Below, one piece after another: positions 1 to 61,668 of a DNA stretch of 64,000 nt (position 1 is its first letter; each line of letters opens with the position of its first letter). Below the pieces are notes generated by a model. The model was given only the letters and a program-made list of their open reading frames with translations. It searched no databases and had not been told where the DNA came from. Made by a program: the position numbers and the translations under genes. Origin of the DNA: Bacteroidales bacterium (lineage in GTDB: Bacteria; Bacteroidota; Bacteroidia; Bacteroidales; UBA932); NCBI GenBank assembly GCA_017546585.1, contig JAFYWC010000098.1, forward strand, positions 360-64,359. Reading direction: 5' to 3'.

Positions 1-101
1 CGGTCGCCCAAACCGCCTTAAAGCGCGGTTCTCTGCCACCGTTCGGGTGAATTACCCTCCATTTCCGCCCGAACTGTCTGCCGTGCAGATAACCGATAGA
101 G

Positions 102-195
102 TTTCCGGGACAAGAGCCCGTATCCCTCTGCCTTCGGACTCCACACCTTGTGCGAGTTTCCGTGCAAAGTGGCACAAGGTGTCCTGCAAAATGCC
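102..195. repeat. Direct repeat copy A (~94 bp) containing a 40-bp palindrome (143-182)
   Basis: TTTCCGGGACAA...TATCCCTCTGCCTTC...ACACCTTGTGC-N18-GCACAAGGTGT-CCTGCAAAA aligns by eye with 2242-2334; weaker similarity extends left to about 85 and 2225. Confidence 0.9.
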
Positions 196-225
196 TTTTA
201 AGTTATTATTAGGGGTAACAAAATA

Positions 226-2142
226 TTACAAAATCTCTACATCTTCCCAACCAGGAATCGCAGTGTTAGAGATGGTCTTGGTATTTGTTCCTCCGAAGAT
301 TCTGCTGAATTCACTAAGGTATACATCTGCAATCCTTCTGTTTGAATTGCCGGTTTCATCACTAGATGGGTGAACATCATCTGTGCAGAATGTGCTCCAA
401 TCTCCTATGTCGCCAATCGTATTATAGACATTCACGATATCTAAGTCCCAGATGTTTGCAACAGCTTGATTGTAGTACAATAATGTGGCTGTGAGATTAA
501 AGTCAGATCGATACAGACCAGTGCTAGACATTGCCTGACGTACCCAAGGACTATCAAGAGCGAAATAATTACCAATTATTATTTTGGCATTTGGATTAGC
601 CTTATTTATAGCATTAATTATCCTTTCCATACACATCAAATAACTTCCTTCTTCTGAAAGTCCTTGAGTGTTTGTGATTGTTGGGACATATGATGAGTTG
701 TAATTTTCTTTATTTAGAGCTAAAAGGTTTGTTGCTCCATATATACCAATTTCAAAATCATAGGATGTAGAAATGTAATATCCTGCTTCCCAAAGCATAC
801 CGAAAACTCCATTTACACCCCATAAGTCATTAAATCCGTGGTCTATAACGATGGTTTGACAATTGTCAAGTGTGCCGTCAATATAGGGTATAATTAATGA
901 CTCATATGACAAGGACTGAACTGCTGAAATCTGTTCATTTACCCATTGTTCGCCCTTCCCATCTTCATCTTTGTATCTTGTCATTAGTCGCTCTCTGTAG
1001 ATTTGCTCTGCTTCTTGTTTTGTCTGTGATAGGCCTCCGCCTTTTTTATAATCCCAATTCTGAATCAGCCAATCCATCGCATCATATCCACCAGGAAATG
1101 GCTCGGGAATTCTAAGCACTTGTGTGGCTGCAATAGAATTATTAACAACTTCAAGTCCAGTTGCGTTAGATATCATCTGCGGATAGTTGTTTGTTTGGGA
1201 ACCGGCAGGGATAGATGTGCCCACCCATAAGATCTTGCCACCGGGGACGTTTTTCGTCCAGGCGTTTTCGGTGGAAAGGCTTGACGCAGCGACGCCGTCC
1301 GCAGATACTTTGATTTTCAGCTTGTAGCGCTTGCCGCCTTTGAATGTTATTCCATTGCTCGCGAAATATAGCGGTTCGAATGTCTTCGGGGTGCCGTTCA
1401 CGTTCGCGGTGACAACGAGGCTTGGCCTATTGCTGCTTGTCGATGTATACGGATGGAAAATTGCCTCTGCTGTATTGATTCCATACTGGACGCCCGCATT
1501 CATATACATATCAATCTGCTCATTGTTCGGAGCGGCTGCGCTTATGTGTGACATCGTCTCATAGCTGAATACGCCGCCCATCGAGACATTCTTCAGCTTG
1601 ATGGATGTCACGGAAACATTCTCCCCGGCTTCATAAATCACCTGGATCTTGGCCATCAGATGGCTGAAGCACACGTCTATGTGGTCGCCCTGGATGGTTA
1701 TGCCATTGTCTGTGCTTGCGCCAAGTATATCGTTGCTGATGAATTTCTCATCGGTTGTCTGGTCGCTTGAGATAATGATGGCTAATTCATTGTTCTTGTC
1801 GAGTGCGGTTCCGGCAGGAACTGTCAATGCTTTTACCTGCACATTGCTGTGGTCGTTGCTGGCCCAGCGGATTTCTCTGATGTCTGTTTTGTATGTATTG
1901 CTGTCGTCAGCTTTAGTCATTGTCAGCAATGAATAATTGAAGTTCTCGTCGCCCTGATTGATGTCCATTACGAACTCGGCAGGTAGGGTAGCGGCATCAT
2001 ATCCGGCCTTGATCTGGGAGCCCACCTGAGAACTCACAGTGATGCAACCAGCCCCTTCAGGCTGTTCTGGGAGCATCTTCTCGTTGCAGGAAACGATTGA
2101 GAATATTGTGATCAGTGCAGTAAAAGTCTTGAGTAGTTTCAT
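226..2142 (-). CDS. Lipoprotein: N-terminal fimbrillin (type V pilin-like) domain fused to a C-terminal SGNH/GDSL hydrolase
   Basis: Lipobox IVSC; pilin-like N-half (ITVSSQV...IKAGY; FSHLMAKIQV; FKGGKRYKLKI); SGNH blocks ILWVGTSIP, DHGFND and DDVHP all present. Confidence 0.8.
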   Translation of the reverse strand: MKLLKTFTALITIFSIVSCNEKMLPEQPEGAGCITVSSQVGSQIKAGYDAATLPAEFVMDINQGDENFNYSLLTMTKADDSNTYKTDIREIRWASNDHSNVQVKALTVPAGTALDKNNELAIIISSDQTTDEKFISNDILGASTDNGITIQGDHIDVCFSHLMAKIQVIYEAGENVSVTSIKLKNVSMGGVFSYETMSHISAAAPNNEQIDMYMNAGVQYGINTAEAIFHPYTSTSSNRPSLVVTANVNGTPKTFEPLYFASNGITFKGGKRYKLKIKVSADGVAASSLSTENAWTKNVPGGKILWVGTSIPAGSQTNNYPQMISNATGLEVVNNSIAATQVLRIPEPFPGGYDAMDWLIQNWDYKKGGGLSQTKQEAEQIYRERLMTRYKDEDGKGEQWVNEQISAVQSLSYESLIIPYIDGTLDNCQTIVIDHGFNDLWGVNGVFGMLWEAGYYISTSYDFEIGIYGATNLLALNKENYNSSYVPTITNTQGLSEEGSYLMCMERIINAINKANPNAKIIIGNYFALDSPWVRQAMSSTGLYRSDFNLTATLLYYNQAVANIWDLDIVNVYNTIGDIGDWSTFCTDDVHPSSDETGNSNRRIADVYLSEFSRIFGGTNTKTISNTAIPGWEDVEIL

Positions 2143-2164
2143 ATTTTGCGAATCAATATCCGCA

Positions 2165-2172
2165 CAAATTTA
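2165..2172 (-). promoter_or_regulatory. Bacteroidota -7 promoter element for the pilin-SGNH gene
   Basis: TAAATTTG on the minus strand matches TAnnTTTG, ending 22 nt before the ATG. Confidence 0.6.
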
Positions 2173-2241
2173 GTGGTTTTTGGTGAATTTACCGTGTGAG
2201 AGTTGGAGGTGGATAGGATAGGAAGCGGATACCCGGCAGAC

Positions 2242-2334
2242 TTTCCGGGACAAACCCCGTATCCCTCTGCCTTCAGGTTCCACACCTTGTGCGAGTATTC
2301 CTGCATATAGGCACAAGCTGTCCTGCAAAACGCC
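2242..2334. repeat. Direct repeat copy B containing a 40-bp palindrome (2282-2321)
   Basis: Same orientation as 102-195; arms ACACCTTGTGC / GCACAAGCTGT (one mismatch) around an 18-nt spacer. Confidence 0.9.
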
Positions 2335-2355
2335 GTTTTGATGTAGTTTTACACT

Positions 2356-2395
2356 ACACCTTTGGCGACTTTTGCCCTATAGGCGCCAAAGGTGT
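2356..2395. repeat. Third 40-bp ACACCTT...AAGGTGT palindrome
   Basis: Perfect 12-bp arms ACACCTTTGGCG / CGCCAAAGGTGT with a 16-nt loop; same total length and terminal heptamer as the other two. Confidence 0.85.
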
Positions 2396-4530: not shown

Positions 4531-5852
4531 CACTAGTGTCCAATAAAATTTAAAACTTAAACTCAAATTGAAGTTGAACAGTCTCATCATCCGCATCCTC
4601 GATAGTTTCAGAGCCTTTGAAAAGGTCTCTGATGGAGGTCTTGTCGGTCAGGACTCTGCTCAGTACTCGGAGGACATTGAACGTTGTTCTTCCAAGCTGG
4701 CAGTCGTGCTCGACGATGGCCACGAGGCAGTATGTGATGACTGCAACATATATCTGTATTCTCACAGCGTTCTCGCTGGTTCCCCAAAAGGAGAGCACAC
4801 GAAGATGCTGTTTTATCCACCTGAAGAACAGTTCCACCTGCCATCTCTGCTTGTAGAGCATTGCAATATCCTTAGCCTTGATCGTAAAGTCATTAGTAAG
4901 GAATGTGAACGTCCTCTTCAGTTCAGGAGCATAGTAAACTATCCTCCTCAGCTCGGATGGGTATTTGGTTTTTGTCAACTGACCAGTCAGTCTTATGGTC
5001 TGATCAAGCAGCACATTGTCATCCCCATCCAACAGTTCATCTCCAGCCACAACTTCGTACTTGAGATGATCCTTCGCTCGGATGATAAACATAGAACCGA
5101 TGCTCTGGATTCTATACAATCTGGCAAGGTCATAGTATCCTTTGTCAAAGATATAGAACGCATTAGGCTCGTAAGGTATCTCATCCATTGCATTCACGTC
5201 ATGAAGTTTCGCTTCAGTAATGTGAATGTAGGTAGGAATCTGAGTGACCACATCAAACAAGGTGTGCACCTTGATTCCGCTCTTGGTTTTGCGGAAGTAT
5301 GCCCACTCGAACAGACTCATGCAGAGATCTATCGTCGTCGAATTGAACGCGTAGAACTTGCCATTGAGAACGAACGACCTTGTGATTCTCTTGCTCTGAG
5401 CAAGGTTGATCATATGGTAGGCAAACTCCTCAAATATCTTGTAATCTCGGTTGGCGTTAGCATAGGACAGATTGCTCAGCTTTATGTCACCGCTACCGAA
5501 ACCGAGATGGTAGCTCTTACTCTTGATGGCGTCAATGATTGCCGCAACTTCTCTGAGACTGTCACAGCCTGCGAGTTGTCCGAACATCATGACAAGAAGT
5601 TGATTCCAACAGGTGAAATGCTTCACCCACTTATCACCTTCGTATCTCTTTACGATACCATCAAAGACTCTTTTAGGAAGAAAACTAACGAGTTGACTGA
5701 ATATGTATTTGCCTGCATTCATGCTTGTCCGATCTAATGTCGGCAGCAAATATGCGAAATCAATTCAAATCGACACGCGGTGTTTTCTGTTGTATTTAAT
5801 TATATATTAATAAGTTACAAAGGTTTGTCAAAAAATCTTTTGGACACTAGTG
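4531..5852 (-). mobile_element. IS4-family insertion sequence
   Basis: Perfect 13-bp terminal inverted repeats CACTAGTGTCCAA (4531-4543) / TTGGACACTAGTG (5840-5852) enclosing the transposase; no target duplication visible. Confidence 0.9.
4550..5722 (-). CDS. IS4-family DDE transposase (DUF4372 N-terminus), first catalytic Asp replaced by Asn
   Basis: Likely start MNAGKYIFSQL (ATG 5722); motifs YAFNSTTIDL (family usually DSTTI), FDKGY and YKQRWQVELFF. Confidence 0.9.
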   Translation of the reverse strand: MNAGKYIFSQLVSFLPKRVFDGIVKRYEGDKWVKHFTCWNQLLVMMFGQLAGCDSLREVAAIIDAIKSKSYHLGFGSGDIKLSNLSYANANRDYKIFEEFAYHMINLAQSKRITRSFVLNGKFYAFNSTTIDLCMSLFEWAYFRKTKSGIKVHTLFDVVTQIPTYIHITEAKLHDVNAMDEIPYEPNAFYIFDKGYYDLARLYRIQSIGSMFIIRAKDHLKYEVVAGDELLDGDDNVLLDQTIRLTGQLTKTKYPSELRRIVYYAPELKRTFTFLTNDFTIKAKDIAMLYKQRWQVELFFRWIKQHLRVLSFWGTSENAVRIQIYVAVITYCLVAIVEHDCQLGRTTFNVLRVLSRVLTDKTSIRDLFKGSETIEDADDETVQLQFEFKF

Positions 5853-32809: not shown

Positions 32810-32899
32810 AGCACGGAAAACACGTAAAAGCGTGGCAGATCCGACCTTCGAGGTGGGTATCTGCCACGCTTTCGTTATGTTTCCGTGGAAGATATTTCC
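32810..32899. repeat. REP-like palindromic element, dispersed copy 1
   Basis: Core AAAGCGTGGCAGAT-CCGACC-TTCGA-GGTGGGT-ATCTGCCACGCTTT shared with the copies at 56723, 57788 and 61569. Confidence 0.9.
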
Positions 32900-56724: not shown

Positions 56725-56825
56725 GTAAACATCAAGCACGGAAACATATCAAAAGCGTGGCAGATCCGACCATTTAGGTGGGTATCTGCCACGCTTTCCC
56801 TATATATCCGTGCTCAACCTCCGCA
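56723..56825. repeat. REP-like element, left flank of the RAYT gene (103 bp)
   Basis: Differs from 57788-57890 at 5 of 103 positions; contains a 14-bp perfect stem with a conserved inner mismatch. Confidence 0.95.
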
Positions 56826-56932: not shown

Positions 56933-57793
56933 ATGAAACAGTACTATCACGTGAGCAGTAAGGCGTTGGAGAAGAATAATATTTTCCATTCGCGAGAGGA
57001 TTTTGTGACGGCGATGAACGATGTGGCGATATGTGTGTTGAGGTACGATGTGGTGATATTGTGCTTTTGCCTGATGAGTAATCACTTTCACTTTGTCCTC
57101 AAAGGGTCATATCAAGAGTGCTATGCCTTTATGAATGAGTTCAAGCGCATCTGTGCAATCCGTATGCGGGACAGGTGTGGGGAGGTCAATGGACTTAAAG
57201 ATGTTGATCTACGCTTTGATCTCCTGGATTCGCAGGAGTATCTGGAGAATGCGATTGCTTATGTCCTTCGCAACCCTCTTGCAGCGCGCATCATTATGAT
57301 GCCATATTTCTATGAGTGGTCGTCAGCTCTTGCATATTTTCGTGGGAAAGGAGAACTGCAAGGGATCCCCCTGAATAGCCTCAGTATCAGAAAACGCAGG
57401 GAAATACTTCGCACTCGTCACGATGTGGTCCCTGATAAATATGTGCTTTGTAACGGTGGCTTTGTGCACCCCGCAAGTTACATTGCCAGTGAAGAAGTCG
57501 AAAGCATTTTCAGACATCCCTCAAGGCTGATGATGGCGCTTGCGAAGAAAGTTGAAAATGAATTCGAAGTGGCGTCCGGAGCCGCTAATCAGATAGTGAT
57601 GCTTGACCCGGAGTTAAAGACTCACATCCTGGAACTGATACGTAATGAATTCGGGGTTGACTCACTCTCCCAGTTGTCTGCTGATGACAGATTGCGACTG
57701 TGCCTTTTGGTGCGACGTAACTTCAACGCGTCTGTGAAACAGATTTCCCGTGTTCTGAGACTCAGCCAGTCATTGGTGGCGTCAGTCTTGTAA
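56933..57793 (+). CDS. REP-associated tyrosine transposase (HUH Y1, TnpA-REP/RAYT) with a C-terminal HTH-like extension
   Basis: YYHV...FCLMSNHFH (HUH), AYVLRNP (catalytic Tyr) and YEWSS; flanked by palindromic repeats. Confidence 0.9.
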   Translation: MKQYYHVSSKALEKNNIFHSREDFVTAMNDVAICVLRYDVVILCFCLMSNHFHFVLKGSYQECYAFMNEFKRICAIRMRDRCGEVNGLKDVDLRFDLLDSQEYLENAIAYVLRNPLAARIIMMPYFYEWSSALAYFRGKGELQGIPLNSLSIRKRREILRTRHDVVPDKYVLCNGGFVHPASYIASEEVESIFRHPSRLMMALAKKVENEFEVASGAANQIVMLDPELKTHILELIRNEFGVDSLSQLSADDRLRLCLLVRRNFNASVKQISRVLRLSQSLVASVL

Positions 57794-57890
57794 ACATCAA
57801 GCACGAAAACATAACGAAAGCGTGGCAGATCCGACCATTTTGGTGGGTATCTGCCACGCTTTTCCTATATATCCGTGCTCAACCTCCGCA
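57788..57890. repeat. REP-like element, right flank of the RAYT gene (103 bp, direct orientation)
   Basis: See the left copy; the transposase stop codon lies inside this repeat. Confidence 0.95.
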
Positions 57891-61568: not shown

Positions 61569-61668
61569 TGTGGAAGATATCTTCCACAGTTATATAGGAA
61601 AAGCGTGGCAGATACCCACCTCGAAGGTTGGATCTGCCACGCTTTCGCTATGTTTTCGTGCTTGATGT
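61569..61668. repeat. REP-like element, dispersed copy 4 (inverted relative to the others)
   Basis: AAAGCGTGGCAGAT-ACCCACC-TCGAA-GGTTGG-ATCTGCCACGCTTT between convergent lptF/G and ilvE. Confidence 0.92.

Follow-up and report, generated by a model that had tools for sequence, protein, structure and literature searches.

The three short palindromes at the left end of a 64,000-nucleotide stretch of Bacteroidales DNA (hereafter the window), which lies on contig C45 of a Candidatus Cryptobacteroides metagenome-assembled genome (MAG; G000, 2.49 Mb in 163 contigs, 95.6% complete), are probably components of doublets resembling repetitive extragenic palindromes (REPs), and these doublets would be the private substrate of one clade of Bacteroidales-specific Y1 HUH enzymes related to the REP-associated tyrosine transposases (RAYT/TnpA-REP) and to IS200 TnpA. 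This interpretation draws on the repeat family itself, its geometry, its association with a gene in related genomes, the motifs and fold of the encoded protein, the way in which the repeat ends follow the enzyme tree, and the presence or absence of a doublet at one orthologous locus. The system is REPtron-like, a variant of an enzyme-plus-repeat system already known rather than an element of a new kind; a preliminary description of this DNA, in which the palindromes matched no element that was recognised, was too strong in this respect, given their likeness to REP, bacterial interspersed mosaic element (BIME) and REPtron systems. By analogy with the related enzymes, hairpin recognition, cleavage and mobility would all be due to the repeat-linked protein.

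It was confirmed that the three palindromes occur where they had been described, each 40 bp long, with arms of 11–12 bp and with GT, CT and CC as central dinucleotides. Site 1 (143–182) reads ACACCTTGTGC-N18-GCACAAGGTGT with perfect 11-bp arms, site 2 (2282–2321) shares these arms except for one mismatch (AAGCTGT), and site 3 (2356–2395) reads ACACCTTTGGCG-N16-CGCCAAAGGTGT with arms of 12 bp. The pattern ACACCTT-N24-28-AAGGTGT matched the window twice, versus 0.00 times in 100 shuffles, and the broader ACACCTT-N24-28-AAGSTGT gave 10 forward and 8 reverse matches in the whole genome, every one of exactly 40 bp, with none for its reversed control; with such counts near zero, the three palindromes are not attributable to chance. 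As single-stranded DNA, sites 1, 2 and 3 are predicted to fold with −13.0, −5.5 and −15.1 kcal/mol (z scores of −4.5, −1.3 and −7.3, respectively). Sites 1 and 2 sit within the two copies of a direct repeat of about 115 bp (85–199 and 2225–2338, 83–86% identical) and are therefore not independent. Sites 2 and 3, in turn, constitute one 114-bp doublet, which is the real repeat unit and in folding forms a hairpin of its own for each palindrome (−25.6 kcal/mol, z −5.3). The preliminary description, correct as to the palindromes, had overlooked this doublet, the longer direct repeat that holds sites 1 and 2, and the lack of a cognate enzyme gene in this genome.

The canonical repeat unit is a doublet of 113 bp, in which two 40-bp palindromes are separated by a 33-bp spacer, giving 73 bp from start to start; a single 40-bp unit can also be read as two inverted 17-mers flanking six central bases. 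The genome holds 13 ACACCTT units, arranged as six doublets and one lone unit at seven loci on six contigs, all of them intergenic and all exactly 40 bp in length. The 73-bp spacing is kept in five of the six doublets (C62:22899, C97:385, C127:19394, C140:19164 and C161:46433), and the sixth, at C45:2641 (window 2282–2395), has a spacer of 34 nt. An exact search with ACACCTT-N26-AAGGTGT in 40 relatives returned matches that looked like chance, except for one genuine doublet in G008. The exact pattern is a weak probe since the inner arms vary from species to species (TTGGACGTTT, TTGACAAAGAA and TTTGGCGAGTTT, for instance) yet remain palindromic, and a doublet pattern that tolerates mismatches performs better. 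When such a pattern, with three mismatches allowed, was applied to 401 genomes of the genus, ACACCTT-family doublets were detected in 15 of them and none was returned by the reversed pattern used as control.

In several genomes, paired doublets were found 1–1.5 kb apart. It was observed that, in G316, G228, G069 and G060, ACACCT doublets flank on both sides a gene for a protein of about 305 aa, which starts with MKKTYHLCLSAGDE. Homologous loci were collected by a scan with one genome per species and an alignment of seven closer sequences, resulting in 80 loci, nearly all of them from Candidatus Cryptobacteroides, Ca. Coprenecus or other Bacteroidales MAGs of ruminant or other animal guts. A doublet fitting the strict 40-33-40 pattern was present in the 700-bp flanks of the gene at 54 of these loci, on both sides at 33 and inside the gene at none; the same strict criteria applied to the whole 2.49 Mb of G000 returned 18 doublets, at least 12 of which belong to these families. 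The distance from the end of the upstream doublet to the ATG is 132–137 bp in the ACACCT cases and usually 115–137 bp over the homologous loci. When strong palindromes were sought in the flanks with no preset geometry, their length peaked at 40 bp, and 39 of 55 pairs were spaced by 73 bp from start to start. Over the 80 loci, the geometry of 40 and 73 bp thus stays the same, and it is the repeat ends that vary.

The ends vary along the protein tree. For 24 end types, 27 changes were counted, versus a mean of 43.6 in shuffles, none of 200 shuffles being as low. The ACACCT-flanked enzymes all fall within one supported clade of 12 rows, three of which have CCGCTT or CAGCTC ends, and the end motifs of other clades include ACCGTTC, CGAGCTG and AGCGTCG. 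Repeat ends thus cluster on the enzyme tree; since related rows share labels, this is clustering and not proof of co-evolution. Some further features of these loci were recorded. At locus L127 (SUYM01000026.1), six ACCGTCACGCAG-type units lie in tandem upstream of the enzyme gene with a 73-bp period and a CRISPR-like look. Many homologues stand alone on contigs of about 1.1–1.3 kb, and in G402 fragments of ACACCT-clade genes occur at the ends of contigs C33, C43 and C36, hinting at several copies of the enzyme gene there. Metagenome assemblies seem to break at the element, and certain genomes may carry it in several copies.

Regarding the protein, an alignment of 12 sequences, comprising ACACCT-clade proteins and the eight paralogues encoded by G000, showed that residues H50, H52, Y107 and N111 are invariant, which corresponds to HxH and Y-x-L-R-N motifs. 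One paralogue exceeded the threshold of the Pfam Y1_Tnp profile (31.4 bits), four others scored 13–20 bits, and the NCBIfam model REP_Tyr_transpos was matched at an E-value of 0.0095. A sequence search of the PDB with a single protein gave no match. The AlphaFold2 model of the ~305-aa protein reached a mean predicted local distance difference test score (pLDDT) of 83.3, and its top Foldseek match in the PDB was 4er8_A, the E. coli RAYT bound to a REP hairpin (E-value 2e-4, probability 1.00, TM score 0.71 of the target, 147 columns), followed by more than 25 IS200-family TnpA chains (IS608, IS200, ISDra2 and Sulfolobus). Residues from about 150 to 307 are helical in the model and matched by nothing solved, and this C-terminal helical domain of about 150 aa carries weak helix-turn-helix (HTH) matches. 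In a collection of 5.8 billion proteins, 1253 relatives were retrieved at E ≤ 1e-5, and, among the best 120 of these, none is recorded with a Pfam domain and the sole name is ‘hypothetical protein’. Motifs and predicted structure together support the assignment of the repeat-linked protein as a relative of the Y1 HUH enzymes with the RAYT/IS200 TnpA fold. A relative of the Y1 transposase whose co-occurrence was to be checked according to the preliminary description was thus encountered, lying between doublets in four relatives, and that description's suggestion of an HUH-nuclease site was supported, considering that the same repeat family brackets this gene and that the repeat ends track its phylogeny.

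The presence of a doublet could also be compared at one locus, the pgk-lgt spacer, which carries it in G000 and lacks it in six relatives, one of which is 89% identical in the adjoining coding sequence. Separately, the pgk terminator is followed, at C62:22700–22880, by a palindromic block rich in GC (TTTACCCCCAGTCGCC...GGCGACAGCCCC.AGGGGC) that is kept in three genomes, G107 and G054 included; this block is a further small repeat-like element.

The preliminary description had also spoken of covarying stems, a claim that holds between lineages and fails within single copies. Among 89 units from 15 genomes, 76.5% of the cells of the 17-bp stem were paired, versus 69.7% in shuffles (0 of 500 as high) and 35–50% with slid partners, and the stem covariation score was 0.246 versus 0.155. 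By comparison, over positions 8–17, the arms matched at 5.8 of 10 positions within a unit versus 6.2 of 10 between units of the same genome, and 1982 of 2000 within-genome arm shuffles reached the observed value. Hence, the palindrome is maintained as the family drifts between species, and single copies carry no private compensatory changes. Recurrent arm variants (TTGGAC versus CTCGGTC) make many units asymmetric.

These observations bear on whether the units might instead be structured RNAs or terminators, that is, transcript hairpins acting in termination or mRNA stabilisation and unrelated to a nuclease. The hairpins are stable, their stems covary across lineages, and all copies are intergenic, several of them directly past gene ends; moreover, side effects of this sort are known for classical REPs (PMC3733652). 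However, compensatory changes are absent from single copies, no match to Rfam was obtained at gathering thresholds in the 64-kb window, the terminator scan called no unit, a run of T follows none of them, and the rubredoxin gene has a separate terminator at 2511–2525. Additionally, the A/T phasing described below and the fixed 73-bp spacing are properties of DNA, and the close linkage to an HUH gene would be left unexplained. The structured-RNA option of the preliminary description, together with the ordinary terminators it had named as the alternative, is thus very improbable.

Orientation and DNA shape provide a different perspective. Within a doublet, the two units mostly have the same orientation (14 versus 4 clear cases in the ACACCT family, 25 versus 8 in all families), and the doublets upstream and downstream of a gene are direct repeats of each other in 24 of 26 clear cases. 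Runs of at least three A/T along the doublet recur with a period of 10.4 bp (z of about 50 versus mononucleotide shuffles), suggesting that the double-stranded doublet is bent or wrapped. Such features invite the explanation that the units are double-stranded sites for a dimeric or tetrameric protein, such as a tyrosine or serine recombinase, a regulator or a nucleoid protein, the 40-mer representing two inverted 17-bp half-sites around a 6-bp centre and the paired sites being separated by a bent spacer, seven helical turns apart, and forming a wrapped complex. The 17-6-17 layout is like that of lox, FRT or res-type sites, the phasing and the fixed 73-bp spacing agree with wrapping, the arms are no more complementary within units than between them, as expected for half-sites, and the enzyme itself has the C-terminal helical domain with its weak HTH matches. 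The inverted inner segment that distinguishes two units of this genome would also fit: C97:385–424 and window 2356–2395 belong to co-linear doublets and differ in that the inner 16 bp are inverted (ACTTTTGCCCGATAGG versus CCTATAGGGCAAAAGT). This segment lies between 12-bp inverted arms, and a hairpin-mediated flip of the loop is its likely cause. Nevertheless, the sole consistently linked gene encodes a Y1 HUH homologue, a protein whose relatives of solved structure work on hairpins of single-stranded DNA, and, among the genes adjoining the eight loci inspected, no tyrosine or serine recombinase was present, which leaves the recombinase-site option of the preliminary description without its enzyme there. 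A role as double-stranded sites in place of HUH substrates is accordingly unlikely, and it is compatible with the preferred interpretation, considering that one protein could bind both forms of DNA.

Several findings weigh against REP-like doublets read by a Y1 HUH clade. The ACACCT-clade proteins score nothing with Pfam Y1_Tnp and most members of the family are sub-threshold, and a profile search of the PDB sequences peaks at an E-value of 0.22 (ISDra2 TnpA). The repeats lack the GT[AG]G foot, their ends being ACACCTT...AAGGTGT, the two units of the doublet usually share one orientation instead of being inverted, the copies are few, at seven loci, and the arm comparison within single copies given above points in the same direction. 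The pgk-lgt spacer is too diverged for an empty site to be defined at base level, so that loss in the relatives remains an alternative to insertion. Finally, none of the eight G000 paralogues was placed in the ACACCT clade in this 95.6% complete assembly, and the nearest, C115:84078–84998, is 80% identical to enzymes of the GAGCTG clade.

The arrangement at the left end of the window, where the ACACCTT copies are accompanied by a doublet of a second family, comprises the following features.

38–77 (no strand): 40-bp unit of a second family with ends ACCGTTC...GAAC(T/G)GT, the second unit of the doublet C45:324–436.
85–199 (plus strand): left copy of the ~115-bp direct repeat, in which a degenerate palindrome of 38 bp, the ACACCTT unit and the initial 17 nt of the doublet spacer are combined.
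143–182 (no strand): lone ACACCTT unit (site 1), a truncated doublet whose spacer stops after 17 nt at 199.
226–2142 (minus strand): gene of 638 aa, not a transposase, enclosed by the ~115-bp direct repeats according to the open reading frame (ORF) and repeat positions.
2225–2338 (plus strand): right copy of the ~115-bp direct repeat, from repeat comparison.
2282–2395 (no strand): complete doublet, with units at 2282–2321 and 2356–2395 and a 34-nt spacer at 2322–2355, from scans and folding.

The first unit of the ACCGTTC doublet (C45:324–363) begins 36 nt ahead of the window, 73 bp from start to start, and this end type also flanks enzyme genes elsewhere (L149 and L166; G124 and G402). The degenerate palindrome of the direct repeat (GGATAC...GTATCC) had no further copies in the genome. 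From its translation, the 638-aa product appears to combine a pilin-like N-terminal part with an SGNH-hydrolase-like C-terminal part, and no DNA-level homologue of its gene was found in five relatives. The arrangement at 85–2338 could result from a rearrangement at the doublet or represent a mobilised segment; in the same five relatives no empty site for the pilin/SGNH segment was found, the rubredoxin gene being the sole match and synteny being lost. In a separate comparison, 70 bp of the window (4531–4600) are 99% identical to G228:C13:70–139 with non-matching flanking DNA, possibly the end of a mobile element.

A gene bracketed by two repeat copies, as in this segment, recalls an integron cassette, and the combination of a 40-bp repeat with a 33-bp spacer, along with the six tandem units at 73 bp of L127, recalls a CRISPR-like mini-array; the constant ends and variable inner stems are likewise reminiscent of attC-type sites. 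However, the linked gene encodes an HUH enzyme, and it is scarcely credible that the units are of either kind. A CRISPR array was rejected considering that many positions differ between the two units of a doublet and that the spacers share phased A/T tracts, and integron attC sites were rejected because the ends are unlike RYYYAAC/GTTRRRY, the tandem pairs have no genes between them and there is no run of cassettes. None of the ORFs listed beside the eight loci was cas- or integrase-like, these ORFs having been neither scanned with Pfam nor subjected to a targeted cas/intI search.

There is also a slim chance that the doublets are more than selfish repeats, delimiting single-stranded cassettes mobilised by the HUH enzyme between doublets of the same orientation or acting as a domesticated protein–DNA wrapping site with a chromosomal role. 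If the cassette variant were true, ordinary genes, such as the pilin-like/SGNH gene between the two direct-repeat copies, would travel, resulting in hairpin-guided, integron-like gene shuffling in gut Bacteroidales.

Within G000, the eight enzyme paralogues are 20–66% identical to the ACACCT-clade query L035 (locus L093/L035, CANBDZ010000078.1:7004–7924), and most have their own 40-bp palindromes, with different ends, on one or both sides. Seven lie outside the window, on contigs C115, C133, C117, C124, C62, C123 and C82, and the eighth lies in the window with its repeats, as follows.

56755–56794 (no strand): 40-bp palindrome GCGTGGCAGATCC...GGGTATCTGCCACGC upstream of the window paralogue, within a ~100-bp direct repeat, from palindrome scans.
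56933–57793 (plus strand): Y1/HUH paralogue of 286 aa with the motifs MSNHFH and AYVLRNP, belonging to a repeat family other than ACACCTT (Pfam Y1_Tnp 20.3 bits, sub-threshold).
57820–57859 (no strand): GCGTGGCAGATCC-type palindrome downstream of the window paralogue, from palindrome scans.

The window paralogue is flanked by direct repeats of about 100 bp, each with one 40-bp palindrome, and GCGTGGCAGATCC-type palindromes also occur at 32830–32869 and 61603–61642, with eight copies in the genome, as single units and not as doublets. AGAGCTGTACC doublets, which share the geometry of the ACACCTT doublets, flank the C115 paralogue and are present at three other loci as well. Further families of 40-bp palindromes (GTGTGCGTAAAGTGAC..., ACGCTCCTGATCCCC... 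and CAGAAACTGCGTGCTCCC...) were noticed in G000, some of them close to paralogue genes. As for the ACACCTT family and the adjacent ACCGTTC doublet, both appear orphaned in this assembly. Since no ACACCT-clade enzyme was found in the genome, this set of six doublets plus one lone unit probably consists of relics, the enzyme having either been lost or escaped assembly.

If the palindromes are indeed substrates of a Y1 HUH clade, the enzyme would recognise the single-stranded hairpin formed by each 40-bp unit, as its solved relatives do, and, close to the hairpin foot, one strand would be cut and rejoined by the catalytic tyrosine together with the HxH metal site. Such cutting and rejoining would spread or maintain the doublets in intergenic DNA, and the terminal heptamer, ACACCTT in this case, would be the clade-specific part of the recognition. 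The doublet may in addition be bent or wrapped in its double-stranded form, perhaps by the C-terminal domain of about 150 aa.

A REPtron pairs every tnpA-REP gene with a REP family of its own, copies of which flank the gene (Quentin et al. 2018, PMC6006769). As with E. coli TnpA-REP/RAYT (4er8), a Y1 HUH gene here lies between short imperfect palindromes of its own, further copies of which are dispersed in intergenic DNA, and each enzyme has a private repeat family, several families coexisting in one genome. The enzyme shows the HxH, the single tyrosine and the TnpA-REP/IS200 fold expected of REPtron members, as far as alignment and modelling go, and flanking repeats were found in four relatives and not for the ACACCTT family of the window's genome; dispersed intergenic copies exist at seven loci, fewer than for classical REPs. 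On the other hand, the GT[AG]G foot is missing, the units are 40 bp long with a clade-specific terminal heptamer, and the fixed 33-bp spacer, the mostly direct units, the flanking doublets as direct repeats and the low copy number depart from the REPtron. The enzymes also differ in their length of about 305 aa, their large C-terminal domain, the sub-threshold Pfam scores of most members, and the absence of the W motif, with LGE where WQ/WE is expected (compared with Table 1 of PMC6006769).

The doublet is the repeated entity, with an apparent co-evolution of enzyme and repeat, also in the REPIN-RAYT system of Pseudomonas (Bertels and Rainey; PMC3116915, PMC3337134). A REPIN consists of two inverted repeats that together make a single long hairpin, and its copies number in the hundreds (PMC3116915, PMC3337134), whereas here each unit forms its own hairpin, the pair is mostly direct rather than inverted, and about seven loci are occupied. 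Among the TnpA-Y1 subclasses, 2.6 is found mostly in Bacteroidetes, with ‘atypical secondary structures’, a median of 179 aa in length and WQ and YIH[QN]NP as motifs, and 2.1/TIRYT has C-terminal HTH domains and no REPs found (PMC6006769). The present family resembles subclass 2.6 in its phylum and in its atypical flanking structures with no GTAG, and differs from it in its ~305 aa and in Y[ITV]LRN[AP]; it resembles subclass 2.1 in the long C-terminal extension with HTH-like features and in the NHxH motif, and differs from it in its REP-like flanks. Judged by length and motifs against the published descriptions of these subclasses, the family would fit neither. The catalytic fold and the hairpins of the same orientation at both gene ends are shared with IS200/IS605 elements (IS608, ISDra2). 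Unlike in these elements, the gene and its flanks were not found here in identical multiple copies, the protein is twice as long (about 305 aa versus about 150 aa for TnpA), and doublets also occur with no gene.

REP/RAYT systems are known chiefly from Proteobacteria, and their function is still debated. For the window, the palindromes are explained, probably as relics. For the genus, whose members are uncultured gut Bacteroidales, a protein family that databases call ‘hypothetical’ becomes available, with up to eight enzyme–repeat pairs in one 2.5-Mb genome, in which a fixed repeat geometry (40 bp, 73 bp and A/T tracts at 10.4 bp) is combined with freely changing recognition ends. It therefore offers a natural series for the reading of hairpins by HUH enzymes and for the co-evolution of enzyme–repeat specificity.

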